Assembly (NCBI RefSeq): GCF_041248615.1
Contig: NZ_CP158426.1
Strand: one strand, 5' to 3'
DNA: 64,000 nucleotides
Source: Escherichia coli
GTDB lineage: Bacteria > Pseudomonadota > Gammaproteobacteria > Enterobacterales > Enterobacteriaceae
Shown here: one piece after another, positions 11,278 to 43,242 of the stretch
Layout of the letters: each line of letters starts with the position of its first letter
How positions within the stretch are numbered: position 1 is the first letter of the stretch
The notes under the pieces: generated by a model
The model's input: the letters and a program-made list of their open reading frames with translations, nothing else
The model's database searches: none
What the model was told of the DNA's origin: nothing
Translations under genes and position numbers: made by a program

Positions 11278-11430
11278 CTACTTCTTCGGTTCGTAAGCGA
11301 GAACAGCCTTAAACTCAATATTACGTTCCTTCACCGTAAACTCACACAGCGAGTCTCCGACCAGAAGCGTAAATCCCAGCACCGTTAAACACAGCACTAT
11401 GACTGCCACAAGGGCATATTTCGTCAGCAT
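11278..11430 (-). CDS. hokE: Hok-family small membrane toxin (type I toxin-antitoxin), copy 1
   Basis: 50 aa [50 protein letters not shown]; single TM helix plus conserved Hok C-terminus. Confidence 0.85.
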
Positions 11431-11780: not shown

Positions 11781-11933
11781 CTACTTCTTCGGTTCGTAAG
11801 CGAGAACAGCCTTAAACTCAATATTACGTTCCTTCACCGTAAACTCACACAGCGAGTCTCCGACTAGAAGCGTAAATCCCAGTACCGTCAAACACAGCAC
11901 TATGACTGCCACAAGGGCATATTTCGTCAGCAT
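11781..11933 (-). CDS. hokE: Hok-family small membrane toxin, copy 2 (identical 50-aa protein; in this copy the upstream mok-like frame is fused in frame, track ORF 11781-12077)
   Basis: Same 50-aa Hok sequence; 98-aa extended ORF in track. Confidence 0.85.
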
Positions 11934-24859: not shown

Positions 24860-26297
24860 GCCATTTCAGCGCCCGTTTTCGCTGGCAACCCGCCTGACCT
24901 TTTTTATCAGCCTCGCCACCATCGCGGCGTTTTTCGCCTTTGCATGGATCATGATCCACTCGGTAAAAGTGCATTTTGCCGAGCAGGATATTAATGATTT
25001 AAAAGAGATTAGCGCCACCCTTGAACGGGTACTTAATCACCCTGACGAAACGCAAGCCCGACGCTTAATGACGCTGGAAGATATCGTCAGTGGTTATTCC
25101 AATGTATTGATCTCCCTGGCAGATAGCCACGGTAAAACGGTGTATCACTCCCCCGGTGCGCCGGATATCCGCGAGTTTACGCGTGACGCCATACCCGATA
25201 AAGACGCGCGGGGCGGCGAGGTGTATCTCCTTTCCGGCCCGACGATGATGATGCCAGGCCACGGTCACGGGCATATGGAACACAGCAACTGGCGGATGAT
25301 TAGCTTGCCGGTTGGCCCACTGGTGGACGGCAAACCGATTTATACGCTCTACATTGCGCTTTCGATCGATTTTCATCTTCATTACATAAATGATTTGATG
25401 AATAAACTTGTAATGACCGCATCGATCATTAGCATCCTGATCGTCTTTATCGTGCTGTTGGCGGTACATAAAGGTCACGCGCCGATCCGCAGCGTCAGCC
25501 GTCAAATCCAGAATATCACCTCGAAAGATCTCGACGTTCGCCTTGACCCGCAGACCGTGCCCATTGAGCTGGAACAGCTGGTACTGTCGTTCAACCATAT
25601 GATCGAGCGTATTGAGGATGTCTTTACCCGCCAGTCCAATTTCTCAGCGGATATCGCTCACGAAATTCGCACGCCGATTACCAATCTCATCACGCAAACG
25701 GAAATCGCCCTCAGCCAGTCGCGCAGCCAGAAGGAGCTGGAAGATGTGCTCTACTCTAATCTCGAAGAGCTGACGCGAATGGCGAAAATGGTCAGCGATA
25801 TGCTGTTTCTCGCTCAGGCCGATAACAACCAGCTAATCCCCGAAAAGAAAATGCTCAACCTGGCGGATGAAGTCGGCAAAGTGTTCGATTTTTTCGAGGC
25901 GTTAGCGGAAGATCGCGGCGTGGAGTTGCGGTTTGTTGGCGACAAATGTCAGGTTGCGGGCGATCCGCTGATGCTGCGTCGGGCGTTAAGCAACCTGCTT
26001 TCTAATGCCCTGCGTTATACGCCACCCAGTGAGGCTATTGTAGTGCGCTGCCAGACGGTCGATCACCAGGTGCAAGTTTCCGTCGAAAACCCCGGTACGC
26101 CCATTGCGCCCGAGCACTTACCGCGATTGTTTGACCGTTTCTACCGCGTTGACCCCTCCCGCCAGCGAAAAGGCGAAGGTAGCGGTATTGGGCTGGCGAT
26201 AGTGAAATCGATTGTTGTCGCGCATAAAGGCACGGTTGCAGTAACGTCAGATGCTCGGGGGACAAGGTTTGTGATTATGCTGCCGGAGAGAGAGTGA
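24849..26297 (+). CDS. cusS: Copper/silver sensor histidine kinase
   Basis: 482 aa, two TM helices, H-box [12 protein letters not shown], ATPase domain; overlaps cusR stop. Confidence 0.95.
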
Positions 26298-27033
26298 TTA
26301 TTAAGTTCAAATTCAGGGCGTGGTGCATCACCTCCTGGTATTGTTGATCAACAAATTAGAGAAAAACTTATTAAACATATGAAATATCGAAGGCTTTTAT
26401 TTTTCAAAGTTTCACGAGATGTTTGTATATGAAACTTAGTTAAATCTGTGTTTCTTCCAATTGTAGATCACAATGCCCTTTCTAAATTTTCATCGTTATA
26501 AACAAGCCATCTATCATATAAAGCAATGAATAATTTAATCGCGATTAATCATCATTAATTGTTATATTATTCACTCAATCTATTTATCAAGTGAATTTGA
26601 TAAATTCCTAATTTAAAATATCCACTATTGAGCCAGTATTTAACAACGTTAAGATGTGCAATGTGCAGATCATGTTATCAGGGTGGAGCGGTAGCATATA
26701 TTTCTTATGCAATCATTCATTTTAATAATGTTAATTGGATTATTTATTGCTGTGAATAAAAATATATTATGAATATTGGTTTAACTTTGCGTTTTTGTTA
26801 CTCGTTGTGATATGCGTACCTGTCCTGAATAACGCCAAGAAACAAGAGGTTGAGCTTGTGATTATTTTTTTGACTGAACAGACACCCGTTTCTGTAAAGT
26901 AATATTTAAACAAAATTCTCACATAACCATAGCATTTTCTGTTCCTTCCCTAATAACGTCTGAAGTCGTCCCGCTTATCACATTATCCGCAGTTGTACGG
27001 TACGGATCATTATTCATTTTACTGGAGGTTGCT
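26298..27033. promoter_or_regulatory. AT-rich, ORF-free leader (about 735 bp) upstream of vgrG; left edge of the Rhs island
   Basis: Markedly AT-rich, no ORF of 60 aa or more in any frame. Confidence 0.3.
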
Positions 27034-28935
27034 ATGTCAACCGGATTACGTTTCACACTGGAAGTGGACGGCCTGCCGCCGGATGCTTTTGCGGTGGTTT
27101 CCTTTCATCTGAACCAGTCACTCTCTTCGCTCTTTTCCCTCGATCTCTCCCTGGTCAGCCAGCAGTTTCTCTCCCTTGAATTTGCGCAGGTGCTGGACAA
27201 AATGGCCTACCTGACGGTATGGCAGGGCGATGACGTACAGCGCCGGGTGAAAGGCGTGGTGACCTGGTTTGAACTCGGGGAGAACGACAAAAACCAGATG
27301 CTGTACAGCATGAAGGTGCACCCGCCGCTGTGGCGTGCCGGTCTGCGCCAGAACTTCCGTATCTTCCAGAACGAGGACATCAAAAGCATCCTCGGCACGA
27401 TGTTGCAGGAAAACGGGGTGACCGAATGGAGTCCGCTGTTCAGCGAGCCGCATCCTTCCCGTGAGTTTTGTGTCCAGTACGGTGAGACTGATTACGATTT
27501 CCTGTGCCGGATGGCGGCGGAGGAAGGCATCTTCTTTTATGAGGAGCATGCTTACAAAAGTACCGACCAGAGCCTGGTGCTGTGCGACACAGTCCGCCAT
27601 CTGCCCGAATCTTTTGAAATCCCATGGAACCCGAACACCCGTACCGAGGTGAGCACCCTCTGCATCAGCCAGTTCCGCTACAGCGCACAAATCCGCCCTT
27701 CTTCCGTGGTGACCAAAGACTACACCTTTAAACGCCCCGGCTGGGCCGGACGTTTTGAACAGGAAGGCCAGCACCAGGACTACCAGCGCACGCAGTATGA
27801 AGTGTATGACTACCCCGGACGTTTCAAGGGTGCCCACGGGCAGAACTTTGCCCGCTGGCAGATGGACGGCTGGCGAAACAATGCAGAAACCGCGCGGGGA
27901 ATGAGTCGCTCGCCGGAGATATGGCCGGGACGACGAATTGTGCTGACGGGGCATCCGCAGGCGAACCTGAACCGGGAATGGCAGGTGGTGGCAAGTGAAC
28001 TGCACGGCGAACAGCCACAGGCGGTGCCAGGACGGCAGGGAGCGGGGACGGCGCTGGAGAACCATTTTGCGGTGATCCCGGCAGACAGAACATGGCGACC
28101 ACAGCCGTTGCTGAAACCGCTGGTCGACGGCCCGCAGAGCGCTGTCGTGACAGGACCGGCAGGCGAGGAAATCTTCTGCGACGAACATGGTCGCGTGCGG
28201 GTGAAGTTCAACTGGGACCGCTATAACCCGTCAAACCAGGACAGTTCGTGCTGGATCCGTGTGGCACAGGCGTGGGCAGGCACCGGTTTTGGCCACCTGG
28301 CGATACCGCGTGTGGGTCAGGAGGTGATTGTAGACTTCCTCAACGGCGATCCGGACCAGCCGATCATTATGGGGCGCACCTACCACCAGGAAAACCGCAC
28401 CCCCGGCAGCCTGCCGGGAACAAAGACGCAGATGACCATCCGCTCCAAAACGTACATGGGCAGCGGATTTAATGAGCTGAAGTTTGATGATGCGACAGGG
28501 AGAGAACAGGTCTACATCCACGCGCAGAAGAACATGGATACCGAAGTGCTCAACGACCGTACCACCACCGTAAAACACGATCACCACGAAACCGTAAAAA
28601 ATGACCAGACGGTCACGATCCAGGAAGGTAACCGCCTTCTTACGGTGGAAAAAGGCCACAAGATCACCGGAGTACTGAAAGGGTCTTTATCTGAGGATGT
28701 CTTTCAGGACAGAGGCACGATTGCCGGTTCGGTGCATGTTGACGCTGTAAACAATGGTGGCGAAGGCGACGGTATACAGGCTTATACGGCGATTAAGGAA
28801 ATTTTGCTGGCCGTGGAGGAAAGCAAAATTGCGCTGACGCCGGATGGCATTCAGCTACAGGTCGGGGAATCGACGGTAATCAGGCTGTCGAAGGATGGCA
28901 TCACCATCGTGGGCGGTTCTGTTTTCATCAACTGA
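27034..28935 (+). CDS. vgrG: VgrG spike protein (type VI secretion; Rhs-associated Vgr)
   Basis: 633 aa, gp27/gp5-like VgrG sequence directly upstream of Eag-like and PAAR-Rhs genes. Confidence 0.9.
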   Translation: MSTGLRFTLEVDGLPPDAFAVVSFHLNQSLSSLFSLDLSLVSQQFLSLEFAQVLDKMAYLTVWQGDDVQRRVKGVVTWFELGENDKNQMLYSMKVHPPLWRAGLRQNFRIFQNEDIKSILGTMLQENGVTEWSPLFSEPHPSREFCVQYGETDYDFLCRMAAEEGIFFYEEHAYKSTDQSLVLCDTVRHLPESFEIPWNPNTRTEVSTLCISQFRYSAQIRPSSVVTKDYTFKRPGWAGRFEQEGQHQDYQRTQYEVYDYPGRFKGAHGQNFARWQMDGWRNNAETARGMSRSPEIWPGRRIVLTGHPQANLNREWQVVASELHGEQPQAVPGRQGAGTALENHFAVIPADRTWRPQPLLKPLVDGPQSAVVTGPAGEEIFCDEHGRVRVKFNWDRYNPSNQDSSCWIRVAQAWAGTGFGHLAIPRVGQEVIVDFLNGDPDQPIIMGRTYHQENRTPGSLPGTKTQMTIRSKTYMGSGFNELKFDDATGREQVYIHAQKNMDTEVLNDRTTTVKHDHHETVKNDQTVTIQEGNRLLTVEKGHKITGVLKGSLSEDVFQDRGTIAGSVHVDAVNNGGEGDGIQAYTAIKEILLAVEESKIALTPDGIQLQVGESTVIRLSKDGITIVGGSVFIN

Positions 28936-28962
28936 TTCACTCAGATTATCAGGGAGTATTTT

Positions 28963-29424
28963 ATGCAGTTCACTTTTAATGAAGGCCACATTCAACTGCC
29001 GTCTCAATGGCAGGATCAGTCAATGCAGGTCCTGGTGTCCACAGATAACAGTGGCATCAACCTGGTCATTACCCGCGAAGCCGTTCCACAGGGAACCCTG
29101 ACACCAGAGCTGTACCAGGAAACGCTGGCGCTGTACCAGGGCAAACTTGATGGGTACACCGAACATGCCTGCCGGGAAATCACTCTGGCAGAGGCCCCGG
29201 CCTGGCTGCTGGATTATTCCTGGAACGGTCCGGAAGATGAGGGGAATCAGGGGCGGATTAGCCAGATAGCCGTATTCCAGCGGCGTGGAGATACGCTGCT
29301 GACCTTCACTTTCAGCACCTCCTTATCCCTGAAGAACAGTCAAAAGACGATGCTGCTGGAGGTGATAAAGAGCTTCACCCCGTTGCCACCGGAGAATGAC
29401 ATCCAAAAGGACCAGCCGCGCTGA
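28963..29424 (+). CDS. DUF1795 (Eag-family) effector-associated chaperone
   Basis: 153 aa small protein immediately upstream of a prePAAR-Rhs effector; position and size typical of Eag chaperones. Confidence 0.7.
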   Translation: MQFTFNEGHIQLPSQWQDQSMQVLVSTDNSGINLVITREAVPQGTLTPELYQETLALYQGKLDGYTEHACREITLAEAPAWLLDYSWNGPEDEGNQGRISQIAVFQRRGDTLLTFTFSTSLSLKNSQKTMLLEVIKSFTPLPPENDIQKDQPR

Positions 29425-29443
29425 CATAAACGAGGGATAACAC

Positions 29444-32400
29444 ATGAGTGAAGGACCAGGCGGGCCACAGGGAGCGACCGCAGGCGGTACGCTGGCAATG
29501 CGAATGCTGTCACAGCAGGCGATGGTCGCCAGCCAGATGAAACGGGCAGCCAACGACAAAGCCATTGCACAGATGCTGGCATCAAAAAAGTCCGGCCCCC
29601 CCGCCGCCAGGCTGGGCGATGAAATTCAGCACAAGAGTTTTTTGGGGGCGCTGGCAGGGGCCGTGCTGGGGGCGATAGTGACCATCGCAGAAGGTTGCCT
29701 GATTATGGCCGCCTGTGCCACCGGCCCTTATGCGCTGGTTCTGGTGCCTGCGCTGATGTATGCCAGCTATAAGGCGAGTGATTATGTGGAGGAGAAACAG
29801 AACCAGCTTGAATCATGGATAAACAGCTTTTGTGACACGGACGGCGCCATCAATACCGGTTCTGAAAATGTAAACATTAACGGAAAGCCCGCTGCCAGGG
29901 CCGCCGTCACCCTTCCCCCTCCTCCCCCACCTGGAGCAATACCTGAAATCCCACAGGGGGAACCCTCATGGGGTGATATTGCCACTGACCTGCTTGAATC
30001 GGCAGCGGAAAAAGCAGTACCACTGGCGAAGGCCTGGGGGAACGCTGTTATCACCCTGACGGACAGCAATGCCGGTTTTATGGATCGCGTCAGCGCCGGC
30101 GCATCGCTTCTGTTTCCCGCCGGTCCGGTATTAATGGAGTTTGCCACCATGGTGGGCGGGCGTGGCGAAATCAAAAAAGACGTGGATTTCCCGGAAGCCG
30201 GTGAGGACACGGCGCTCTGCGACAAGGAGAACAAACCGCCGAGGATAGCCCAGGGCAGCAGCAACGTCTTTATCAACAATCAGCCTGCTGCACGCAAGGG
30301 GGACAAACTGGAGTGCAGTGCGGCAATCGTGGAAGGTTCGCCGGACGTCTTTATTGGGGGTGAGCAGGTCACCTATCTGGATATCCAGCCGGAGTTCCCG
30401 CCGTGGCAGAGAATGATCCTGGGGGGAATAACGATAGCCAGCTATCTTCTGCCGCCAGCGGGACTGCTGGGAAAACTGAAGAATCTGGCGAGACTCGGCA
30501 AACTGGGAAACCTGCTGGGGAAAAGCGGGAAGCTGCTGGGGGCAAAGCTCGGCGCGTTGCTGGGGAAAACAGGTAAGTCGTTAAAAAGTATTGCCAATAA
30601 AGTCATCAGATGGGTAACAGATCCTGTCGATCCGGTAACCGGCGCATACTGCGACGAACGTACCGACTTTACGCTGGGCCAGACACTCCCCCTCTCCTTC
30701 ACCCGTTTCCACAGTTCTGTACTGCCACTGCATGGCCTGACGGGCGTGGGCTGGAGCGACTCCTGGAGCGAATACGCCTGGGTGCGTGAACAGGGAAACC
30801 GGGTGGATATCATCAGCCAGGGAACCACGCTGAGATTTGCCTTCGACGGTGACAGTGATACGGCGGTTAACCCGTATCACGCCCAGTACATTCTGCGCCG
30901 CCGCGATGATTACCTGGAGCTGTTCGACAGGGATGCACTGAGCAGCCGCTTCTTTTATGACGCCTTTCCGGGAATGCGTCTGCGCCACCCGGTGACTGAC
31001 GATACCAGCGATGACCGTCTGGCACACAGCCCCGCAGACCGGATGTACATGCTGGGCGGGATGAGCGACACCGCCAGCAACCGCATCACGTTTGAGCGCG
31101 ACAGCCAGTACCGGATCACAGGTGTCAGTCACACTGACGGGATCCGGCTTAAACTGACGTACCACGCCAGCGGCTACCTGAAAGCCATTCACCGCACGGA
31201 TAACGGCATACAGACGCTGGCGACCTACGAACAGGATGCGCGGGGGCGGCTGACAGAAGCGGATGCGCGGCTGGACTACCACCTGTTTTATGAGTACGAC
31301 GCTGCGGACCGGATCATCCGCTGGTCCGATAACGACCAGACGTGGAGCCGTTTCACCTACGATGAACAGGGCCGGTGCGTGAATGTCACCGGGGCGGAGG
31401 GCTATTACAACGCCACGCTGGACTATGGTGACGGCTGCACCACCGTGACGGACGGCAAGGGCATTCACCGTTATTACTATGATCCTGACGGCAATATTCT
31501 GCGGGAAGCAGCGCCGGACGGCAGCACCACCATGTATGAATGGGATGAATTCCATCACCTGCTGGCCCGTCACTCCCCTGCCGGGCGGGTGGAGAAATTT
31601 GAATACAACGCCGCACACGGTCAGTTAAGCCGTTACACGGCGGCAGACGGCGCGGAGTGGCAGTACCGCTATGATGAGCGCGGCCTGCTCAGCAACATCA
31701 CCGACCCTGCCGGGCAGACGTGGACACAGCAGTGTGATGAACGCGGCCTGCCGGTAAGTCTGGTGTCGCCACAGGGCGAAGAGACCCGGCTGGCATACAC
31801 CGCTCAGGGGCTGCTGTCGGGAATATTCCGCCAGGATGAACGGCGTCTGGGCATAGAGTACGACCACCACAACCGGCCGGAAACACTCACCGACGTGATG
31901 GGCCGCGAACACCACACCGAATACAGTGGTCACGACCTGCCGGTGAAGATGCGCGGCCCCGGCGGTCAGTCAGTGCGCTTACAGTGGCAGCAGCACCATA
32001 AACTGAGTGGCCTTGAGCGCACTGGCACCGGCGCGGAAGGATTCCGCTACGACCGCCACGGCAACCTGCTGGCCTGGACGGACGGTAACGGTGTTGTCTG
32101 GACAATGGAATACGGCCCGTTTGATTTGCCGGTGGCGCGAACGGACGGTGAAGGCCACCGCTGGCAGTACCGCTACGATAAAGACACGCTGCAACTGACA
32201 GAAGTCATTAACCCGCAGGGTGAGTCATATCTTTATGTTCTGGATAACTGCGGCCGGGTGACGGAAGAGCATGACTGGGGCGGCGTGGTCTGGCGTTACC
32301 GCTATGACGCCGATGGCCTGTGTACCGCCAGGGTCAACGGCCTGGAGGAAACCATCCTCTACAGCCGGGACGCCGCAGGCCGCCTGGCAGAAGTCATCAC

Positions 32401-34303
32401 GCCGGAAGGCAAAACGCAGTATGCCTATGACAAATCCGGCAGGCTGACGGGTATCTTCAGCCCGGACGGCACATCACAGCGCACCGGCTATGACGAACGC
32501 GGGCGGGTGAATGTCACCACTCAGGGCCGACGGGCCATTGAATACCACTACCCCGACGAACACACCGTCATCCGCTGTATCCTGCCACCGGAAGATGAAC
32601 GCGACAGACACCCCGGTGAATCCCTGCTGAAAACCACGTACCGCTACAACGCCGCCGGAGAACTGACGGAGGTCATTCTGCCGGGGGATGAGACGCTGAC
32701 GTTCAGCCGTGATGAGGCAGGACGTGAAGTGCTCCGGCACAGTAACCGGGGTTTTGCCTGTGAACAGGGCTGGAATGCAGCCGGTCAGCCTGTCAGTCAG
32801 CGCGCCGGACTTTTCCCGGCAGAAGCCACATGGGGCGGGCTGCTCCCCTCACGGGTACGGGAGTACCGTTACGACAGCGCGGGTAATGTGTCAGGCGTCA
32901 CCAGCCGGGAAGATTACGGACGGGAAACACGGCGGGAATACCGGCTGGACCGGAACGGCCAGGTCACGGCGGTGACAGCCTCAGGCACCGGGCTGGGCTA
33001 TGGCGAAGGCGATGAGTCCTATGGCTATGACAGCTGCGGCTACCTGAAGGCGCAGTCTGCGGGCTGGCACCGGATAAGTGAAGAGACTGACCAGTATGCC
33101 GGAGGCCACCGGCTGAAACAGGCCGGAAACACGCAGTATGACTATGACGCCGCAGGCCGGATGGTCAGCCGCACCAGACACCGTGACGGCTATCGCCCGG
33201 AAACAGAGCGGTTCCGGTGGGACAGCCGTGACCAGCTGACCGGGTATTGCAGCGCACAGGGTGAGCAGTGGGAATACCGCCACGACGCCAGCGGCAGACG
33301 AACAGAGAAACGCTGCGACCGGAAGAAAATCCGCATCACGTACCTGTGGGACGGCGACAGTATTGCGGAAATCCGGGAATACCGCGATGATAAACTGTAC
33401 AGCGTACGGCACCTGGTGTTTAACGGCTTTGAGCTGATAAGCCAGCAGTTCAGCCGGGTACGGCAGGCGCATCCGTCGGTGGCCCCGCAGTGGGTGACAC
33501 GGACGAATCATGCGGTGAGCGACCTGACGGGCCGTCCGCTGATGCTCTTTAACAGTGAAGGTAAAACCGTCTGGCGACCGGGACAGACCAGCCTGTGGGG
33601 GCTGGCACTCAGCCTGCCCGCGGACACCGGCTACCCGGACCCGCGCGGGGAGCTGGACGCGGAAGCCGCCCCCGGCCTGCTGTATGCGGGACAGTGGCAG
33701 GATGCGGAATCGGGGCTGTGCTATAACCGGTTCCGGTACTACGAGCCGGAAACCGGGATGTACCTGGTGAGTGATCCGCTGGGGTTGCAGGGAGGGGAAC
33801 AGACTTACCGGTATGTGCCTAATCCGTGTGGGTATGTTGATCCGCTGGGGCTGGCAAAAACTTCTGTTCCCGTATCAATAGTAGAACCAAAAAAAATCAC
33901 TGGTAACTTTAAAACAATTCGAGAAAAATTAAGGCTTGCCAGGAATGGTGATGTTTCTGCACAAGCCGAAATTGCATACGCAAAATATATGCGTAGTTTG
34001 GGAAAGGATGTGCATTTCAATACACCTCCGAATCGCTCAGTATCAATGGCAGATTTTACAATTGATGGAATCCAGGTTGATACAAAATTATTGAGTGGTA
34101 TAGGCGGAAATGCTGCAAAAAATGTTAACAAGGGAGTTGGCCAGGTGGGAGATAATGGTATCGTCCTGGTAATTAGAAATTCTAATTCCAAAAATACACT
34201 TGAGGAATTTCATGAATTCTTTGGAAACTTCAAACCTAATAATTCAACAGTTCGAGTTGAAGTGATTGATCAATCCGTTTTAGAACCTTTTTGGAGATTT
34301 TAA
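29444..34303 (+). CDS. rhs: prePAAR/PAAR-Rhs polymorphic toxin (full length) with variable C-terminal toxin domain CT1
   Basis: 1619 aa; prePAAR motif AARLGDEIQH (29603-29632), two TM helices, PAAR-like region, many YD repeats, demarcation PxxxxDPxGL (PCGYVDPLGL), then AT-rich 149-aa CT. Confidence 0.95.
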   Translation: MSEGPGGPQGATAGGTLAMRMLSQQAMVASQMKRAANDKAIAQMLASKKSGPPAARLGDEIQHKSFLGALAGAVLGAIVTIAEGCLIMAACATGPYALVLVPALMYASYKASDYVEEKQNQLESWINSFCDTDGAINTGSENVNINGKPAARAAVTLPPPPPPGAIPEIPQGEPSWGDIATDLLESAAEKAVPLAKAWGNAVITLTDSNAGFMDRVSAGASLLFPAGPVLMEFATMVGGRGEIKKDVDFPEAGEDTALCDKENKPPRIAQGSSNVFINNQPAARKGDKLECSAAIVEGSPDVFIGGEQVTYLDIQPEFPPWQRMILGGITIASYLLPPAGLLGKLKNLARLGKLGNLLGKSGKLLGAKLGALLGKTGKSLKSIANKVIRWVTDPVDPVTGAYCDERTDFTLGQTLPLSFTRFHSSVLPLHGLTGVGWSDSWSEYAWVREQGNRVDIISQGTTLRFAFDGDSDTAVNPYHAQYILRRRDDYLELFDRDALSSRFFYDAFPGMRLRHPVTDDTSDDRLAHSPADRMYMLGGMSDTASNRITFERDSQYRITGVSHTDGIRLKLTYHASGYLKAIHRTDNGIQTLATYEQDARGRLTEADARLDYHLFYEYDAADRIIRWSDNDQTWSRFTYDEQGRCVNVTGAEGYYNATLDYGDGCTTVTDGKGIHRYYYDPDGNILREAAPDGSTTMYEWDEFHHLLARHSPAGRVEKFEYNAAHGQLSRYTAADGAEWQYRYDERGLLSNITDPAGQTWTQQCDERGLPVSLVSPQGEETRLAYTAQGLLSGIFRQDERRLGIEYDHHNRPETLTDVMGREHHTEYSGHDLPVKMRGPGGQSVRLQWQQHHKLSGLERTGTGAEGFRYDRHGNLLAWTDGNGVVWTMEYGPFDLPVARTDGEGHRWQYRYDKDTLQLTEVINPQGESYLYVLDNCGRVTEEHDWGGVVWRYRYDADGLCTARVNGLEETILYSRDAAGRLAEVITPEGKTQYAYDKSGRLTGIFSPDGTSQRTGYDERGRVNVTTQGRRAIEYHYPDEHTVIRCILPPEDERDRHPGESLLKTTYRYNAAGELTEVILPGDETLTFSRDEAGREVLRHSNRGFACEQGWNAAGQPVSQRAGLFPAEATWGGLLPSRVREYRYDSAGNVSGVTSREDYGRETRREYRLDRNGQVTAVTASGTGLGYGEGDESYGYDSCGYLKAQSAGWHRISEETDQYAGGHRLKQAGNTQYDYDAAGRMVSRTRHRDGYRPETERFRWDSRDQLTGYCSAQGEQWEYRHDASGRRTEKRCDRKKIRITYLWDGDSIAEIREYRDDKLYSVRHLVFNGFELISQQFSRVRQAHPSVAPQWVTRTNHAVSDLTGRPLMLFNSEGKTVWRPGQTSLWGLALSLPADTGYPDPRGELDAEAAPGLLYAGQWQDAESGLCYNRFRYYEPETGMYLVSDPLGLQGGEQTYRYVPNPCGYVDPLGLAKTSVPVSIVEPKKITGNFKTIREKLRLARNGDVSAQAEIAYAKYMRSLGKDVHFNTPPNRSVSMADFTIDGIQVDTKLLSGIGGNAAKNVNKGVGQVGDNGIVLVIRNSNSKNTLEEFHEFFGNFKPNNSTVRVEVIDQSVLEPFWRF

Positions 34304-34307
34304 AAAT

Positions 34308-34784
34308 ATGATCACCAAATCAAGTATACTCATAGAGTATAAAGATAAAAGTAAACTAACCGAAAGTATTTATAAGTTTGTAAATGCTCTAGATATTGAC
34401 TTTTCGATATTAAAATATGACTACTTTGATGTAAATGAGTATAAAAAAAATATTACTTATGACACATCTTTTATTGACAAAGATGCAGAATATATTGAAT
34501 TATTAGCGAAGATTGATTTTTCTTATGAAGTTGATTTCGGCACATCAACAACATCGATTGAAAGCAAGTATCTTCCATCTCTAACTGATTTCATCGCTCA
34601 ATCACTATCACAACAATTAAATTGTAACATAATAACCAGCTTTAAACCATTAAGTGGAGATGAGTTTTGCCCAATAACATATTTTTCAAAAGGTAAAGAA
34701 GTTATCAATTTTACGACATTTAATTCAAATTGTTGGGATGGGGTATACTGGGTAAAAAAAAGGAGGCAAACAAATATCCGCTAA
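34308..34784 (+). CDS. Putative cognate immunity protein for Rhs CT1
   Basis: 158 aa, AT-rich ORF 5 nt after the rhs stop, in the usual immunity position. Confidence 0.6.
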   Translation: MITKSSILIEYKDKSKLTESIYKFVNALDIDFSILKYDYFDVNEYKKNITYDTSFIDKDAEYIELLAKIDFSYEVDFGTSTTSIESKYLPSLTDFIAQSLSQQLNCNIITSFKPLSGDEFCPITYFSKGKEVINFTTFNSNCWDGVYWVKKRRQTNIR

Positions 34785-34902
34785 CGTAGTTTTTCAATAG
34801 CTACACCATGTCACGTAACATGATGCCTGGATATTAACAGAAAGACAGAAGTGGACTCAGCGGTGAGATGAACGCAGCCTGAGTCTGAAGTACGACCTGC
34901 CG

Positions 34903-37233
34903 GTGAAGATGCGCGGCCCCGGCGGTCAGTCAGTGCGGTTGCAGTGGCAGCAGCACCATAAACTGAGTGGCCTTGAGCGCACTGGCACCGGCGCGGAAGG
35001 GTTCAGCTATGACCGCCACGGCAACCTGCTGGCCTGGACGGACGGCAATGGTGTTGTCTGGACAATGGAGTACGGCCCGTTCGATTTGCCGGTGGCGCGA
35101 ACGGACGGTGAAGGCCACCGCTGGCAGTACCGCTATGATAAAGACACGCTGCAACTGACAGAAGTCATTAACCCGCAGGGTGAGTCATATCTTTATGTTC
35201 TGGATAACTGCGGCCGGGTGACGGAAGAGCATGACTGGGGCGGCGTGGTCTGGCGTTACCGCTATGACGCCGATGGCCTGTGTACCGCCAGGGTCAACGG
35301 CCTGGAGGAAACCATCCTCTACAGCCGGGACGACGCAGGCCGCCTGGCAGAAGTCATCACGCCGGAAGGCAAAACGCAGTATGCGTATGACAAATCCGGC
35401 AGGCTGACGGGTATCTTCAGCCCGGACGGCACATCACAGCGCACCGGCTATGACGAACGCGGGCGGGTGAATGTCACCACTCAGGGCCGACGGGCCATTG
35501 AATACCACTACCCCGATGAACACACCGTCATCCGCTGTATCCTGCCACCGGAAGATGAACGCGACAGACACCCCGGTGAATCCCTGCTGAAAACCACGTA
35601 CCGCTACAACGCAGCCGGAGAACTGGCAGAGGTCATCCTGCCGGAGGATGAGACGCTGACGTTCAGCCGTGATGAGGCAGGACGTGAAGTGCTCCGGCAC
35701 AGTAACCGGGGTTTTGCCTGTGAGCAGGGCTGGAATGCAGCCGGTCAGCTTACCAGCCAGCGCGCCGGACTTTTCCCGGCAGAAGCCACATGGGGCGGGC
35801 TGCTCCCCTCACGGGTACGGGAGTACCGTTACGACAGCGCGGGTAATGTGTCAGGCGTCACCAGCCGGGAAGATTACGGACGGGAAACACGGCGGGAATA
35901 CCGGCTGGACCGGAACGGCCAGGTCACGGCGGTGACAGCCTCAGGCACCGGGCTGGGCTATGGCGAAGGCGATGAGTCCTATGGCTATGACAGCTGCGGC
36001 TACCTGAAGGCGCAGTCTGCGGGCTGGCACCGGATAAGTGAAGAGACTGACCAGTATGCCGGAGGCCACCGGCTGAAACAGGCCGGAAACACGCAGTATG
36101 ACTATGACGCCGCAGGCCGGATGGTCAGCCGCACCAGACACCGTGACGGCTATCGCCCGGAAACAGAGCGGTTCCGGTGGGACAGCCGTGACCAGCTGAC
36201 CGGGTATTGCAGCGCACAGGGTGAGCAGTGGGAATACCGCCACGACGCCAGCGGCAGACGAACAGAGAAACGCTGCGACCGGAAGAAAATCCGCATCACG
36301 TACCTGTGGGACGGCGACAGTATTGCGGAAATCCGGGAATACCGCGATGATAAACTGTACAGCGTACGGCACCTGGTGTTTAACGGCTTTGAGCTGATAA
36401 GCCAGCAGTTCAGCCGGGTACGGCAGGCGCATCCGTCGGTGGCCCCGCAGTGGGTGACACGGACGAATCATGCGGTGAGCGACCTGACGGGCCGTCCGCT
36501 GATGCTCTTTAACAGTGAAGGTAAAACCGTCTGGCGACCGGGACAGACCAGCCTGTGGGGGCTGGCACTCAGCCTGCCCGCGGACACCGGCTACCCGGAC
36601 CCGCGCGGGGAACTGGACGCGGAAGCCGACCCCGGCCTGCTGTATGCAGGACAGTGGCAGGATGCGGAATCCGGGCTGTGCTATAACCGGTTCCGGTATT
36701 ACGAGCCGGAAACAGGGATGTACCTGGTGAGTGATCCGCTGGGGTTGCTGGGGGGTGAGCAGACTTACCGGTATGTGCCGAATCCGTGTGGGTATGTTGA
36801 TCCTTTGGGATTAGCAACATGTCCCATAATCAGACAACGGGTGCTGGCTAACCTTGAAGCCAGTCGGGCAGCAAGGGCTGCATCTAATTTTGGTAAGAAA
36901 AATATCTATGATTTTATCAAGGCAACTCAATCTGCTATCCCTGGCACCTCTATCCCAAAATCTTTTGAGATTATAACTGCTAATGGTACTTTCTGGGTAC
37001 ACCCAAATGCTACAAAACATATGGCTGAATATTTGACTCGGAACGGTCTCTCACATTCAACTTCTGTAGAGAGCCAAATAATGTTAACAAGTTTTCACGA
37101 AGCTGTAAGTTTGGCTAGTGCTCAAGGTATAAAGTATGAAGAAATGATGAATGTTGGCGGCTGGGAACTAGTATTTAGTCAAGCTAAATCTGACTCGGCT
37201 TTATCAGTTATTAAACATGCTCTTTATAAATGA
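34903..37233 (+). CDS. rhs: Orphan 5'-truncated rhs fragment (core repeat plus distinct C-terminal toxin CT2)
   Basis: 776-aa ORF with GTG start; 34892-36813 nearly identical to main rhs 31932-33853; PxxxxDPxGL followed by unrelated 139-aa CT. Confidence 0.85.
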   Translation: MKMRGPGGQSVRLQWQQHHKLSGLERTGTGAEGFSYDRHGNLLAWTDGNGVVWTMEYGPFDLPVARTDGEGHRWQYRYDKDTLQLTEVINPQGESYLYVLDNCGRVTEEHDWGGVVWRYRYDADGLCTARVNGLEETILYSRDDAGRLAEVITPEGKTQYAYDKSGRLTGIFSPDGTSQRTGYDERGRVNVTTQGRRAIEYHYPDEHTVIRCILPPEDERDRHPGESLLKTTYRYNAAGELAEVILPEDETLTFSRDEAGREVLRHSNRGFACEQGWNAAGQLTSQRAGLFPAEATWGGLLPSRVREYRYDSAGNVSGVTSREDYGRETRREYRLDRNGQVTAVTASGTGLGYGEGDESYGYDSCGYLKAQSAGWHRISEETDQYAGGHRLKQAGNTQYDYDAAGRMVSRTRHRDGYRPETERFRWDSRDQLTGYCSAQGEQWEYRHDASGRRTEKRCDRKKIRITYLWDGDSIAEIREYRDDKLYSVRHLVFNGFELISQQFSRVRQAHPSVAPQWVTRTNHAVSDLTGRPLMLFNSEGKTVWRPGQTSLWGLALSLPADTGYPDPRGELDAEADPGLLYAGQWQDAESGLCYNRFRYYEPETGMYLVSDPLGLLGGEQTYRYVPNPCGYVDPLGLATCPIIRQRVLANLEASRAARAASNFGKKNIYDFIKATQSAIPGTSIPKSFEIITANGTFWVHPNATKHMAEYLTRNGLSHSTSVESQIMLTSFHEAVSLASAQGIKYEEMMNVGGWELVFSQAKSDSALSVIKHALYK

Positions 37234-37763
37234 CGATTATGCTTACATTAGAAAATGAAACAAACTACAAAGATGTTGTTGTTAATATAGATGAATTTGT
37301 ACCTTTTGATATAACTTTTGGAAAGGGGAGCGAACAGTGTTTGTACTGGAGAGGCGGCAATGGTAAAAGTTCTTTGGTTGAAGTTGGGTTAAATATGTAC
37401 AGCGGAGAAGTAAGTAACATCACACTAGCAAATATCGATTCAGGTGAAATTAACATTACAGATGAGATGTTAGCCAACAACCTTCCTGAAATACAAGGGT
37501 CTGTTATATTTCAGACAAGCGAGTGGCTTAATAAAGACATTTCCGAATACTCAAACAGATTTATTGATGATTTTGATTGCAATATCAAGTTAATAATTGG
37601 TAGTAATTACATTAAATTATTATTTAAAAAAGCAACAAATCCCATTTGTTATATCATTAATAGGAATATAAGATTTGGTTTTTCTTTGAGTAGGGAACTT
37701 TCGACATTGGAAATATTAGACCTCAATCAAGAAAAATTAGATATTCTAAAGTTATTTAAATAG
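37230..37763 (+). CDS. Putative cognate immunity protein for orphan CT2
   Basis: 177 aa AT-rich ORF whose ATG overlaps the rhs-CT2 stop (ATGA). Confidence 0.6.
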   Translation: MTIMLTLENETNYKDVVVNIDEFVPFDITFGKGSEQCLYWRGGNGKSSLVEVGLNMYSGEVSNITLANIDSGEINITDEMLANNLPEIQGSVIFQTSEWLNKDISEYSNRFIDDFDCNIKLIIGSNYIKLLFKKATNPICYIINRNIRFGFSLSRELSTLEILDLNQEKLDILKLFK

Positions 37764-38242
37764 TTTTAGTGTTTGAAACTTACCGAGAGATGATAGCTAT
37801 GAATGAATACAAAAACATCCATCTTGGAGGAAACAATGGAATGTTAATCCATTAAAAAACATACTTCAATATCTTTAGTGAAGAAAGAGTTGTATGAAAG
37901 AAATATATCTTATGTGAGCGACATGATGCATGCTAATTATATTATTGGCCGGAAATTTTATGATGATAGCAAAAAGGAGGGGTTATTTCTGTAAGAATGG
38001 ATATACCCGCAGGGTTTGAACCAGACATTTATTTGTTGAAGTCTAAGATCCAAATGGAAGCATTTATATCCCTCAGATATTATGCGTTGACGGGTTGATA
38101 AAGATACTTTTAGAGGGTTAATAAATGGAGAACGTATAATAAATCTCTTAAACAAACTATAACCTGTACTAATGAAAAAAATGGGAATAGATAAGTTAAT
38201 AGCCTATTCTAAAAATGGTAAAGTGGTTTTACTTCCAAAATA

Positions 38243-38686
38243 ATGGAGTTTAGTATGAAAATCGAAGCTAATTCCCTTACTCATCCCTATGACTACAACG
38301 CCTCACTGAACAATTATTTACATTATTTTGAGAATTTCTCTCGTAATGACTGGAATAAAGATTCATGTGGAGGATATTTTACTTTTAGAGATGATGACAG
38401 AGAGTGTGTTTTGTTTTTTGTGAATTATGGTGATAATTTTTCATTGCGCTATGATTGTACACAAAGTTCTGATGGAATAGTGTCATGCTGGTATAGTAAC
38501 CATGAAGATGATAAAATGAATATCATCGTCGATGCTGATACAGAACAATTTATCCCTTTAGGTTCTTGCTTACCTCCTGATATTACTTTATCAGTAATAA
38601 AAGATTTTTTCAAAAATCCTTTAGAGAAATCAAAAAAAGTAAAATGGATGAATGCAGATGACATTGACTGGTCATCTGTGTATTAA
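38243..38686 (+). CDS. Hypothetical protein, possible orphan immunity protein
   Basis: 147 aa AT-rich ORF inside the Rhs island with no adjacent toxin; no recognised motif. Confidence 0.4.
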   Translation: MEFSMKIEANSLTHPYDYNASLNNYLHYFENFSRNDWNKDSCGGYFTFRDDDRECVLFFVNYGDNFSLRYDCTQSSDGIVSCWYSNHEDDKMNIIVDADTEQFIPLGSCLPPDITLSVIKDFFKNPLEKSKKVKWMNADDIDWSSVY

Positions 38687-38911
38687 AGTTGGATTGGATA
38701 ATTATCTGTTTCAAAAATCATTAAATTTAGAACCTATCTGTTCAACAGAGCTGCCTTGAACAGCAGGTTCTTTTATGATGTCCAGGAGCGAATATGCCTG
38801 TGATGTCTGGCACTCAGCATCTGACTGACCTGGACTACTGATCCTACTCACACAGGGAGCTAGACCTGGAAGCAACCTACTGTAAGCAGTGCAGTAGCAG
38901 CCCACCTCACA

Positions 38912-38950
38912 TCAGTCCTTGCAAGGTGTGGGCCTTTGTGATCTTGCTCT
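38912..38950. mobile_element. Degenerate remnant resembling the right terminus of an H-repeat/ISAs1-family element
   Basis: About 31 of 40 nt identical to the right end of the complete H-repeat copy at 44492-44531. Confidence 0.3.
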
Positions 38951-39297
38951 GTATTGCTGAGATCCTCAGGAAGGACTCGAAATTTAATCAGGAAGGCCGT
39001 TGCTAAAAATCAAAAAATAAATTCAAGAGCAATTTCTAAAACTTTTGAATCTACTGTATCGGATGAGGTTTTCACTCCTTTCCAAAAGGTGAGTTTTCAA
39101 GCATTCAAGTTTCTGTTATGACCAAAACTTCACCATTTAACACTAATCCGAGTATTATGTTACCATGAAGAAAAAAGATATTAGATTTGCAATATCCATT
39201 AACTCCAACTCAAGTAAGATAGAATTAATGGAAAAATTAAAAACATAATCCCAGGGCTTATTGAAATAACTCCCAGTGCATTAAGAGAAGAAAAAAC

Positions 39298-39513
39298 ATG
39301 GTAGTTATTGAAGATAATGATCTTTATGACCCTATAAAAGCAGAGGGAGTTGATGGATGGATGTATTATAAATTCATATTATCCATATTCCCATTAAAGG
39401 GAGTAGACACAACATTAGAATATCAACGGGAATTATCTTTTCTTTTCTTAAAGAAATTAAAAGATGCGGGTCTGTTAGGTGAACTTATATGCGAGGATGA
39501 TTTTCATGACTGA
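39298..39513 (+). CDS. Hypothetical small protein (71 aa), possible immunity-gene remnant
   Basis: ORF only; AT-rich; within Rhs island. Confidence 0.25.
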   Translation: MVVIEDNDLYDPIKAEGVDGWMYYKFILSIFPLKGVDTTLEYQRELSFLFLKKLKDAGLLGELICEDDFHD

Positions 39514-39577
39514 TGACCTCTACATATATCCTCAGTTCGTGGCTGGTATTACATGATCTGACAGGGAAAGATCGTAG

Positions 39578-39873
39578 CGAAATCAAAAAAGACGTGGATT
39601 TCCCGGAAGCCGGTGAAGACACAGCGCTCTGCGACAAGGAGACTAAACCGCCGAGGATAACCCAGGGCAGCAGCAACGTTTTTATCAACAATCAGCCCGC
39701 CGCGCGCAAGGGGGACAAACTGGAGTGCAGTGCGGCGATCGTGGGAGGTTCGCCGGACGTCTTTATTGGGGGTGAGCAGGTCACCTATCTGGATATCCAG
39801 CCGGAGTTCCCGCCGTGGCAGAGAATGATCCTGGGGGGAATAACGATAGCCAGCTATCTTCTGCCGCCAGCGC
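39578..39873 (+). pseudogene. Fragment of a PAAR-Rhs N-terminal (PAAR) region
   Basis: About 296 bp nearly identical to main rhs 30166-30461; lies in track ORF 39513-39890; abutted on the right by H-repeat end sequence. Confidence 0.75.
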
Positions 39874-39960
39874 AGGGAAAGATCACGTAACGCTGCTTTT
39901 TTGTACTAAATAATTCGCACTAAATGTTCAATAATTGAGATATTCCTTATTACCTAAATA
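39874..39960. mobile_element. Left-terminus remnant (about 85 bp) of an H-repeat/ISAs1-family element
   Basis: Matches the first ~90 bp of the complete H-repeat at 43242-43335 (cagggaaagatca...ttgtactaaataattcgca...ttgagatattcct). Confidence 0.55.
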
Positions 39961-40003
39961 CAGTTCCACCAAGATTACCTAAACCCAAATGAGGTAAAAG
40001 ATA

Positions 40004-40372
40004 GTGGGTATGAATAAAAATGAAATCCATTTCCCTATAGGATATGGTTGGTTGAATGAAAAAAAAATTATTGGCACCAGTGAATTTAGCCAATTAGAAC
40101 CATGGTTTTATCTAGATGAGAACAGGTGTTTTTTTGCGAATAAAAAATGGCCAAATGTCATAGGTGAACAATTATTCGCTTTTGCTAAACGTCAAGATAA
40201 TGATGAATTGGCTTGTTTCAAAATTAATGAATCTGGAGTCTGTGAGGGTGTTTATTTAATTAATGGGTGGACTCCTAACGGGTTTGATATTATACAATTT
40301 TACCCTGATTTTTGGGAATGGGTACATTTGGTTATACAAGATGTCTCGGAGTGGATTGATAATAAAGGATAA
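40004..40372 (+). CDS. Hypothetical protein, possible orphan immunity protein
   Basis: 122 aa AT-rich ORF upstream of orphan rhs-CT3; no recognised motif. Confidence 0.4.
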   Translation: MGMNKNEIHFPIGYGWLNEKKIIGTSEFSQLEPWFYLDENRCFFANKKWPNVIGEQLFAFAKRQDNDELACFKINESGVCEGVYLINGWTPNGFDIIQFYPDFWEWVHLVIQDVSEWIDNKG

Positions 40373-40401
40373 TTTGAAACAAAAGTAAAAAACCGCCTTC
40401 A

Positions 40402-41100
40402 TTGAAGGTAACGTGGAGTGGTGGGCGGAGCAGCCTGCCCGCAGACACAGACTACCCGGACCCGCGCGGGGAGCGGGACGCGGAAGCCGACCCCGGCCTG
40501 CTGTATGCAGGACAGTGGCAGGATGCGGAATCCGGACTGTGCTATAACCGGTTCCGGTATTACGAGCCGGAAACCGGGATGTACCTGGTGAGTGATCCCC
40601 TGGGGTTGCTGGGGGGTGAGCAGACTTACCGGTATGTGCCTAATCCTAGTGGGTATGTTGATCCTCTGGGATTAGCAACGTGTCCTATACTCAGACAGTG
40701 GGCGCTGACTAACCTTGAAGCCAGTCGGGCAGCAAGGGCTGCATCTAATTTTGGTAAGCCTCTGGTCCAGCGAAATAAAACGATTGGCGATAAAGTAAGG
40801 GATATGATTGCCAAAGAGAGGGGAACCACTCTAATTGAACAAAATTATAGAGTGACAGGAGGATTAAAGCGTATTGACGTTGTTGATGGAGTAACGGGTA
40901 TAGAATCTAAAGTCGGTCGAACAGGGTTAACAACCCGAGTACGGCAAGAGGTAGCGCGGGATATTAAGATTTTGAGAAGTGAGCAACTTGATCAAATTGA
41001 ATGGGTGTTTACAAGAAGTTCAACTACAGGGAAGATTGGGCCAACTAAACCACTTGAAGATCTTTTAAATAAACATGGTATACCGATTATTTATCGATAA
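40402..41100 (+). CDS. rhs: Orphan rhs C-terminal fragment (short core remnant plus toxin CT3 with possible PD-(D/E)xK-like motif)
   Basis: 232-aa ORF with TTG start; 40432-40674 homologous to the end of the main rhs core; PxxxxDPxGL then 141-aa CT containing RIDVVDGVTGIESK. Confidence 0.8.
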   Translation: MKVTWSGGRSSLPADTDYPDPRGERDAEADPGLLYAGQWQDAESGLCYNRFRYYEPETGMYLVSDPLGLLGGEQTYRYVPNPSGYVDPLGLATCPILRQWALTNLEASRAARAASNFGKPLVQRNKTIGDKVRDMIAKERGTTLIEQNYRVTGGLKRIDVVDGVTGIESKVGRTGLTTRVRQEVARDIKILRSEQLDQIEWVFTRSSTTGKIGPTKPLEDLLNKHGIPIIYR

Positions 41101-41111
41101 GGAGTGATAGT

Positions 41112-41681
41112 GTGAAACTCAAACCGATTGGTGACTTTTTAAACAAAAATGGGTTTATAAAAAATGGTAACAATGATTTTTATAAAGTTCATGATAAGTT
41201 TGTAAATTGTATAAATTTTCAAAAAAAGAGTACAGGTGATATTTTTTTTATAAACACAGGTGTTCATCCTGTGTTCGAAAATTTTTGCAATGAACCACCG
41301 AAAAAAGAAATAGATTGTTACATCCGTAACCGTGTGTGTGATGGACTAAGTATATCTTTGCTGCATTCTTTTGAAGGTAGTGAGTTTGTTATCAGTGAGA
41401 TAAAAAACAAAGCGTTTTGTTTTTTTGAATACTTTGATTCATTGAATAAAATATTCGATGCTATTCGTGTTGTAGATATTGAAGAGAGAAATATTTGCGA
41501 TGAGCTAAGTGGTGTAAGCAGCGTAAGATTAGCTTTGATGTGTATGAACTACCAGTATGAGAAAAAAAAATTTAGCCTTGTTTCTGATTTTGCGAACTAT
41601 GGTCTTGCTATATCTAGAGGCCCGGTACCGAAAAAAGCATTGGATTTGCCCCTATATTTCCAGACACCTGTTATCACTTAA
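41112..41681 (+). CDS. Putative immunity protein for CT3, 3' end disrupted by IS2
   Basis: 189-aa ORF; last 13 codons lie inside IS2; the original frame resumes after the IS2 target duplication. Confidence 0.55.
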
Positions 41682-42557
41682 CCCATTACTGGCCTGCTGC
41701 CGCAGATATTCCCGTGGCGAGCGATAACCCAGTGCACTATGCGGATGCCATTCGTTATAATGCTCGAACGCCTCTGCAAGGTTCTTTGCTGCCGTTAACC
41801 CGTCTGGTTTAGGCATGATACTGATGTAGTCACGCTTTATCGTTTTCACGAAGCTCTCTGCTATGCCGTTACTCTCCGGACTCCGCACCGCCGTGTTCTT
41901 CGGTTCAAGCCCCAATATCCGGGCAAACTGCCGTGTTTCATTAGCCCGGTAGCATGAACCATTATCCGTCAGCCACTCTACTGGAGACGCCGGAAGCTCG
42001 TTGCCGAAGCGGCGTTCCACCGCTCCCAGCATGACGTCCTGTACTGTTTCACTGTCGAAGCCGCCCGTAGTGACTGCCCAGTGCAGTGCCTCACGGTCAC
42101 AGCAGTCCAGCGCGAACGTGACTCGCAGTTTTTCTCCGTTATCACAGCGGAACTCGAACCCGTCAGAGCACCATCGTTGATTGCTTTCTTTCACGGCCAC
42201 TTTGCCAGTATGTGCCCGTTTCGATGGCGGTACAGCGGTTTTTCGCTCAAGCAACAGCGCATTCTGGCGCATGATCCGGTAAACACGTTTGGCATTGATC
42301 GCAGGCGTACCATCAAGTTCGGCCTGTCTGCGAAGCAGCGCCCATACCCGACGATAACCATACGTGGGCAGCTCTCCGATAACATGGTGTATACGGAGAA
42401 GCACATCCGTATCATCTGAGTGACGGCTGCGGCGACCATCTTTCCAGTCATCGGTTCGTCTGAGAATTACGTGCAACTGCGCACGCGACACCCGGAGACA
42501 ACGGCTGACTAAGCTTACTCCCCATCCCCGGGCAATAAGGGCGCGTGCGCTATCCAC
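41652..42557 (-). CDS. insD: IS2 transposase OrfB
   Basis: 301 aa integrase-core protein recognised as IS2 InsD. Confidence 0.95.
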
Positions 42558-42880
42558 TTTTTTGCACGCCCGTATTCAACGGCTTCTTTAAGGAGTTCAT
42601 TTTCCATCGTTTTTTTGCCGAGCAGGCGCTGGAGTTCTTTAATCTGCTTCATGGCAGCAGCAAGTTCAGAGGCAGGAACGACCTGCTCTCCTGCGGCCAC
42701 AGCAGTAAGACTTCCCTCCTGGTATTGCTTGCGCCAGAGAAATAACTGGCTGGCTGCCACACCGTGTTGCCGGGCAACAAGGGAGACCTTCATTCCCGGT
42801 TCAAAACTCTGCTGAACAATAGCGATCTTTTCCTGTGTAGTACGCCGTCTGCGTTTCTCCGGTCCTAAGACATCAATCAT
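42515..42880 (-). CDS. insC: IS2 transposase OrfA (HTH)
   Basis: 121 aa from [14 protein letters not shown]; overlaps insD by 43 nt, consistent with the IS3-family frameshift window. Confidence 0.9.
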
Positions 42881-43023
42881 CTGCTCTCCAATGACTAGTC
42901 TAAAAACTAGTATTAAGACTATCACTTATTTAAGTGATATTGGTTGTCTGGAGATTCATGGGGCCAGTCTAAGCATTTAAGGATATGATAAAAATAACAG
43001 AGTGATACCTAATCCGGTGTAAT

Positions 43024-43242
43024 ACTTGCTGCCTGTGTACCGCGAAGATTAACGGCCGGGAGGAAACTATTCTCTACAACCGGGACGCCACAGGCCGCCT
43101 GGCAGAAGTCATCACGCCGGAAGGCAAAACGCAGTATGCGTATGACAAATCCGGCAGGCTGACGGGTATCTTCAGCCCGGACGACACATCACAGCGCACC
43201 GGCTATGAAGAACGCGGGCGGGTGAATGTCACCACTCAGGGC
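43024..43242 (+). pseudogene. Internal rhs core fragment (about 215 bp)
   Basis: Homologous to main rhs about 32322-32535; bounded by the IS2 flank on the left and the H-repeat terminus on the right. Confidence 0.7.

Follow-up and report, generated by a model that had tools for sequence, protein, structure and literature searches.

H-NS-silenced, AT-rich promoters of acquired islands are known, for example, from Salmonella SPI-6, from the EHEC type VI secretion clusters and from nucleation sites of the proU/bgl type. Accessory vgrG-Rhs islands carry most of the interbacterial toxins of E. coli and are silent in the laboratory, a silence that has stood in the way of functional studies in EHEC and other pathotypes.

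E. coli has 11 conserved Rhs loci, and the position between nfrB and cusS is among them, listed as Rhs locus 4 (PMC2935791, Table 3). The EHEC counterpart of the island described below is the vgrG1/rhsF 'S-loop 44' (PMC7216683; PMC7618764). In EHEC Sakai, the 5′ start site of the full-length operon of this island is inactive, and internal rhsF promoters fire (PMC7618764). In EHEC EDL933, a swap of the vgrG1 promoter yielded neither VgrG1 nor RhsF, and the authors suspect post-transcriptional repression (PMC13141884); the absence of both proteins after the swap hints at control beyond transcription initiation. Another region of importance here is the K-12 spacer between yncH and rhsE, in which genomic SELEX located a site for the RpoD holoenzyme together with a site for H-NS (Shimada et al. 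2014; PMC3946193, Table 3). Moreover, a PhoB ChIP-seq peak at MG1655 position 1527862, upstream of rhsE, was flagged as H-NS-bound in vivo (Fitzgerald et al. 2023; PMC10294691, Table 1). The present analysis concerns the leader of vgrG in an island at cusS-nfrB, situated in a 64,000-nucleotide stretch of E. coli DNA (contig NZ_CP158426.1), the whole of which is referred to below as the window.

Results

The leader and the boundaries of the island

Between the end of the cusS ORF at 26297 and the start of the vgrG ORF at 27034 there is an intergenic gap of 736 bp (26298-27033). Over the 8.5 kb compared (26000-34500), the window shows 100% identity to the chromosome of E. coli NRZ14408 (NZ_LT599825.1), whose RefSeq annotation gives the same gap. 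The leader stands at the 5′ end of an 18.3-kb island of the vgrG-EagR-PAAR/Rhs type (26276-44576), which is absent between cusS and nfrB in K-12. In MG1655 the two genes are separated by 149 bp, and those 149 bp have no homology to the leader. Pairwise alignment with the 3′ end of MG1655 cusS revealed that homology to K-12 is lost at ~26275, 22 nt before the cusS stop codon; it returns at 44577, 142 bp ahead of nfrB, and the right junction is located at 44576/44577. Because the left junction falls within the last codons of cusS, the C-terminus of CusS (...VIMLPERE*, 482 aa) is unlike that in K-12 (...VITLPA*, 480 aa). The entire leader is island DNA and belongs to horizontally acquired, strain-variable sequence, with both junctions defined and no leader at this site in K-12. 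The initial annotation had placed the left junction of the island at the gap, which is borne out and can be refined to 26275/26276, inside the 3′ end of cusS.

Beyond the PAAR-Rhs gene come small genes presumed to confer immunity, then orphan Rhs fragments, an IS3 and an ISAs1 (H-repeat) element, and finally nfrB-nfrA (Table 1). The window ORFs, together with the RefSeq annotation of the identical record, identify the whole as an Rhs element and an accessory type VI secretion effector island. The IS3 and ISAs1 elements end the island just before the right junction, as they do in classical Rhs elements. Elsewhere in the window, the RefSeq annotation of the NRZ14408 record places two identical hokE toxin genes on the minus strand between entD and ybdK (~11278-11430 and ~11781-11933, ~500 bp apart), apparently the result of a tandem duplication of hok/sok.

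Table 1. Coordinates of the vgrG leader, of its parts and of neighbouring island features in the window.
Feature	Position	Strand	Remarks
Left island junction	26276-26297	+	Last 7 cusS codons and stop, from non-K-12 sequence
Variable AT-rich 5′ part	26298-26552	.	Only at the cusS locus; ~70% identity between window-type and S1-IND-type
Conserved core	26553-26702	.	Common to cusS, yncH-rhsE and ansP leader types; only part alignable in the third
Inverted repeat TTTATCAA-gtgaat-TTGATAAA	26583-26604	.	Right arm kept in all types
56-nt best-conserved block AACGTTAAGATgTGCAATGTGCAGATCATGTTATCAGGGTGGaGCGGTAGCATATA	26645-26700	+	Relatively G+C-rich within the AT-rich leader
Candidate short upstream ORF, start MCRSCYQGGAVAY...	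26661-26759	+	Conserved ATG; only first 13-15 codons conserved
Candidate sigma-70 promoter TTATCA-16-TATATT	26675-26702	+	Consensus scan; 5′ UTR would be ~325 nt
AT-rich spacer, putative long 5′ UTR	26703-27003	+	51-86% identity between types, several indels
Conserved ribosome-binding region	27004-27033	+	Shine-Dalgarno GGAGG at 27024-27028, 5 nt before the vgrG ATG
vgrG	27034-28935	+	633 aa; first gene of the island operon
DUF1795/DcrB-type (EagR) chaperone	28963-29424		Downstream of vgrG
PAAR-Rhs	29444-34303		1619 aa
IS3-family element	41652-42925	-	
ISAs1 (H-repeat) transposase	43385-44521	+	

Base composition and coding content

The gap has a GC content of 0.315, the window one of 0.508; over 200 bp the minima in the gap are 0.265-0.31, and TpA steps are twice as frequent as the window average. 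An A+T content so far above the window average over hundreds of base pairs is characteristic of H-NS-silenced xenogeneic regions. Of all 736-bp stretches in the window, 1.4% are equally AT-rich, and all the others lie within the same Rhs island. Toxin tips at the C-terminal end of Rhs, immunity genes and orphan fragments occupy these other segments (33761-34990, 36871-38930 and 40711-41800; GC 0.29-0.33), and EHEC is reported to have internal promoters at positions of this kind (PMC7618764).

The longest start-to-stop ORFs in the gap encode 51 aa (minus strand) and 43 aa (plus strand). The gap lacks long ORFs because stop codons are dense at such a base composition: in 31% of first-order Markov simulations with the same composition, the longest open stretch was equally short or shorter. 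Therefore, the absence of ORFs is uninformative by itself. The properties of the gap that exceed chance are its composition, its length and its pattern of conservation. The initial description of a region of about 735 bp with very low GC and no ORF of 60 aa or more, immediately after the cusS stop, is confirmed.

The leader is a duplicated module of Rhs islands

A match to the leader was present in 3,762 of 5,426 complete E. coli genomes; in 2,370 it covered 80% or more of the leader, and the median genome had 2 copies. At the cusS locus, three alleles were distinguished. The window-type allele occurs with at least 99% identity in 2,295 genomes, O104:H4 among them; the O157:H7 allele is 94% identical and lacks 26324-26481 (a 158-bp deletion); and the deeply diverged S1-IND-02-A allele is ~76% identical to the window and forms a mosaic with an rhsE-type 3′ half. 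The second locus is the yncH-rhsE spacer, where the leader stands upstream of rhsE or vgrG and is 78-80% identical to that of the window. The yncH copy of strain 1916D6 is homologous from ~26552 through to the start codon. In the K-12 copy, homology extends over 26552 to ~26977, and the leader then passes, owing to a deletion, into a truncated rhsE core. A third leader type was found at the ansP locus, upstream of an effector-immunity-vgrG-EagR-Rhs island, with ~150 bp that can be aligned (26553-26702, 74% identity). Since the leader precedes Rhs islands at the cusS, yncH and ansP loci, it travels as their 5′ module, and this duplicated 5′ module of Escherichia Rhs islands is a new point.

Several rearrangements were noted at these loci. 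IS1 insertions interrupt the leader in OkiPb01679 (L003:8001-9137) and in strain D5; in OkiPb01679 the leader ends at its position 386 and is followed by IS1 and then by ybcH, the remaining island and nfrBA being deleted. At the yncH locus of 1916D6 (L005:6477-11192), the 1571-aa protein annotated as 'RHS element core protein' is a fusion created by an in-frame deletion: its residues 1-455 share 98% identity with VgrG, and Rhs core makes up the remainder. The rhsE gene of K-12 is the product of a different, larger deletion, in which leader position ~680 is joined to the Rhs core. At the ansP locus of E. coli HCP5S3_I2 (L092:6403-7286), the third leader type precedes two extra genes ahead of vgrG; they encode a 176-aa protein with an HExxH (HEMMH) metallopeptidase-like motif and a 118-aa protein whose signal is of the lipoprotein type (LSGC), and are probably a further effector-immunity pair. 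A tblastn search of the window leader found no remnants of these two ORFs.

The module was seen in E. coli-type sequences only. Searches with blastn and nhmmer upstream of VgrG relatives found no leader homology in 79 loci of other genera, and the phage collection gave no match. In the plasmid collection, the leader matched E. coli records only, mostly of 0.28-4.9 Mb, a size far above that of ordinary plasmids. A metagenome scan for the conserved block returned 120 loci, all of them E. coli haplotypes, with no new lineage.

A sharply conserved core within a divergent leader

Identity between leader types is 51-82% outside two places, namely 26583-26682 (90-96%) and the last 30 nt. In the 56-nt block, identity across types reaches 90-100% against 50-80% in the flanks, and a GATC is present within it at 26668-26671. 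Within each type, 26651-26700 contains 0-2 polymorphic columns among 108 metagenome copies, a figure suited to qualitative use only, given that the search pattern itself had fixed 20 of these 50 nt and that mixed subtypes and one chimeric contig are among the copies. An imperfect palindrome centred on TAATCGCGATTA (26536-26547), in the variable 5′ part, is not conserved. The 150-bp core common to three diverged islands is a new detail and a candidate regulatory site, in which the 56-nt block may represent an operator or a promoter core. The initial description of the leader as an AT-rich region was correct with regard to composition, but it missed a conserved, duplicated module with this sharply conserved core.

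The tract of near-100% identity common to paralogous vgrG copies starts at ~27004, and the first ~1.3 kb of vgrG is 100% identical in the window, in the S1-IND allele and at the yncH locus (compared regions: window 27034-28350; L005:6477-11192; L007:6744-8645), while the leaders of these copies differ by 20-35%. An identical 5′ part of vgrG beside diverged leaders points to recent gene conversion with a 5′ boundary at ~27004. Gene conversion that is active between the cusS and yncH loci also lends some weight to the reading of the leader as a functionless AT-rich spacer left by island assembly, whose core has been kept by patchy conversion between Rhs paralogues and not by selection. The mosaic S1-IND leader and the tolerance of large indels (the O157 deletion and the IS1 insertions) point in the same direction. 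However, the core is kept in the third type despite flanks that cannot be aligned on both sides and despite different downstream genes, within-type polymorphism is lowest in the block, and the K-12 copy binds RNA polymerase and H-NS (PMC3946193). The functionless spacer is given a low probability.

Promoter, H-NS and curvature signals

Promoter prediction and curvature analysis, along with published H-NS ChIP data, were among the checks proposed in the initial annotation. The prediction brought no support: three promoter-like sites were found in the leader, whereas 3.3 were expected from shuffled sequences. The best-placed candidate, TTATCA-16-TATATT, may at most be taken as a weak one by its sequence, its -10 element is not kept in the third leader type, and the best-conserved bases fall in its spacer, where a plain sigma-70 promoter would not usually have them. 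A sigma-54 reading of TGGCA...TGCA was rejected by eye, the spacing being wrong and the GG missing in the window allele. The counts of Fur, CRP, IHF, PhoB and H-NS consensus sites in the leader did not exceed chance in Markov simulations, and a Fur box was absent. The right arm of the inverted repeat, TTGATAAATT (26597), matches 9 of the 10 positions of tCGATAAATT, reportedly the high-affinity motif of H-NS according to Lang et al. (2007); such a match has P = 0.19 in composition-matched simulations. The leader appeared slightly more curved (7.6 versus 5.7 degrees per turn, with a peak at ~26356-26363), but the home-made curvature model carries little weight.

The published H-NS data are available for the K-12 paralogue, a copy that is only 78-80% identical and truncated at the 3′ end. 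The PhoB peak at MG1655 1527862 falls inside this K-12 leader copy. The PhoB site itself (MG1655 1527855-1527872, corresponding to window 26928-26945) is not conserved in the window allele, which differs by one deletion and by substitutions; this loss fits the view of Fitzgerald et al. that the site is transcriptionally inert. The K-12 promoter guessed by Shimada et al., TTGACT-17-TATTAC, is destroyed in the window allele by an 11-nt indel. By analogy with the K-12 copy, binding of H-NS to the window allele is quite probable.

A gene without its own promoter could be served from upstream. According to this possibility, vgrG would be transcribed by read-through from the copper-responsive cusRS operon, and the common orientation of vgrG and cusRS, together with the lack of a predicted intrinsic terminator (a G+C-rich hairpin followed by a T-run) in 26100-27200, is compatible with it. 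A hairpin after cusS (26290-26360) was considered as a terminator and rejected, with z = -1.5, no T-run and a deletion in O157. Against read-through, the leader core precedes Rhs genes at the yncH and ansP loci with unrelated upstream genes, the K-12 copy binds the RNA polymerase holoenzyme by itself (PMC3946193) and the EHEC island is silent (PMC7618764). Moreover, 736 bp of AT-rich untranslated RNA would be a likely substrate for Rho-dependent termination. Read-through is regarded as very improbable.

RNA structure and short open reading frames

The putative UTR did not fold into a more stable RNA than its shuffled versions (z = +1.77), and neither the conserved block (z = -0.08) nor the whole minus strand (z = -0.57) gave a significant value. 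The inverted repeat and the ribosome-binding region, treated as RNA, also had no significant fold, and RNAalifold on six haplotypes gave a covariation term of +0.22, without a compensatory signal. A scan of Rfam 15 (E ≤ 10) produced best matches at chance level, with E = 0.37-1.3 and scores of 19-24 bits, where the cut-offs are 40-170. By eye, 10 nt of the leader matched the 5′ end of tRNA-Asp; the tRNA/tmRNA scan found no such gene.

The short ORF that starts at ATG 26661 deserves separate attention. Its ATG and first 13 codons (MCRSCYQGGAVAY/F) are common to all three leader types, and both substitutions in the segment GGT-GGR-GCG-GTA-GCR fall at third codon positions and are synonymous in this frame. 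These features suit an explanation in which the block is read as RNA, and translation of the upstream ORF, or a small RNA or an RNA-binding protein, controls vgrG translation or mRNA stability. The result of the EHEC vgrG1 promoter swap and the finding that an unrelated leader, that of EHEC hcp3-vgrG3, represses vgrG3 translation (both PMC13141884) are further points in its favour. On the other hand, the ORF varies in length, with 32 aa in the window, 15 in O157, 23 in K-12 and S1-IND and 26 or 17 in the third type, its C-termini are unrelated between types, its Shine-Dalgarno sequence is weak, and the folding results reported above reveal no stable or covarying RNA structure. Control of this post-transcriptional kind is regarded as improbable.

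The possibility of a small RNA or a small protein had been kept open from the beginning. The gap contains several ORFs of 15-51 aa on both strands, and the frame 26795-26902 is open in three of four alleles, as might be expected if an independent gene, unrelated to the control of vgrG, were present. This frame has an in-frame stop in O157, however, and every other small ORF of the leader changes in length or sequence between alleles. Six small ORFs were scanned against Pfam and NCBIfam with no match, and no leader ORF combines the conserved length, conserved sequence and ribosome-binding site of a small protein or leader peptide. The Rfam matches stay far under the gathering scores, and neither strand contains a terminator-like site, a tRNA/tmRNA or a significant fold. 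An independent gene remains in the list of alternatives as an extremely improbable one, with no positive evidence from Rfam, folding or ORF conservation.

Discussion

The island origin of the leader and its regulatory or UTR nature are close to certain. The explanation that we favour, with moderate confidence, is that of an AT-rich island leader coated by H-NS, which silences its own promoter and contains a promoter or control site in the core, followed by a long UTR and a strong ribosome-binding site. The leader would then be the island-borne 5′ regulatory region of the accessory type VI secretion effector island at cusS-nfrB. H-NS, possibly together with StpA or Hha, would coat the AT-rich leader DNA, and this coat would occlude the island promoter. 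Owing to such occlusion, it is proposed, vgrG-rhs is silent under laboratory conditions. The promoter, a site that sets or relieves silencing, or both, may be situated within 26553-26702, and the next ~330 nt may form a weakly constrained long 5′ UTR that ends in a strong, conserved ribosome-binding site. These steps differ in strength. Origin, composition, paralogy and conservation pattern come from the present sequence analysis, as does the lack of a competing RNA family, tRNA, terminator or conserved ORF, which also favours this explanation; the binding of H-NS and RNA polymerase and the transcriptional silence come from publications on homologous copies. The initial annotation, which named an H-NS-type silencing region and promoter, is thus largely right, with support of an indirect kind. 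By analogy with the K-12 copy and the EHEC island, silencing of this particular allele by H-NS is probable, and the role of the conserved core as a promoter or control site is a tentative assignment, with chances a little short of even.

A more far-reaching idea is that the inverted repeat and the block constitute a dedicated cis-regulatory switch of Escherichia Rhs/vgrG islands, either as an anti-silencer operator or as a translated leader (MCRSCYQGGAVAY). Such a switch is considered unlikely, but if it were true, it would explain why the island is silent even after replacement of the promoter.

The locus, the paralogue and the kind of feature were already known, and the left junction inside cusS is new. 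With the 5′ module of the island defined, the common 150-bp core becomes a concrete handle on the signal that switches these toxin islands on.

Three groups of described sequences, beside the general class of silenced island promoters, can be compared with the leader. The EHEC h3R region of hcp3-vgrG3 (PMC13141884) is likewise a non-coding sequence directly upstream of vgrG, it limits vgrG expression, and its last ~13 nt (GGAGGTTGCT-ATG) are in common with the leader. It differs in being 209 bp long and G+C-rich, in having a terminator hairpin and in the absence of sequence homology, and the classification of the leader as an h3R-type element was rejected, as blastn against the Sakai type VI secretion cluster gave no match except for the ribosome-binding nucleotides. 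Orphan vgrG islands of other Enterobacterales resemble the present one in that many have low-GC, ORF-free upstream gaps of 300-850 bp, although these gaps share no sequence similarity with the leader. The K-12 yncH-rhsE spacer (737 bp) is a true paralogue, with the same core, a similar length and 78-80% identity over 26552-26977. Unlike the leader, it ends in a direct deletion fusion with the truncated rhsE core, with ~55 nt at the 3′ end and vgrG missing, and it carries the PhoB site and the TTGACT-17-TATTAC sequence that the window allele has not conserved.

The closest correspondence in kind is with the H-NS-silenced island promoters. The leader shares with them non-coding DNA of low GC content, rich in TpA steps, and a place at the 5′ border of an acquired island; in addition, H-NS binds a paralogous copy both in vivo and in vitro, and the operon stays silent in culture. 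The leader differs from them in its conserved, relatively G+C-rich 56-nt block, which goes beyond what general silencing of AT-rich DNA explains. Apart from the core, it represents the textbook situation of a silenced operon preceded by acquired AT-rich DNA.
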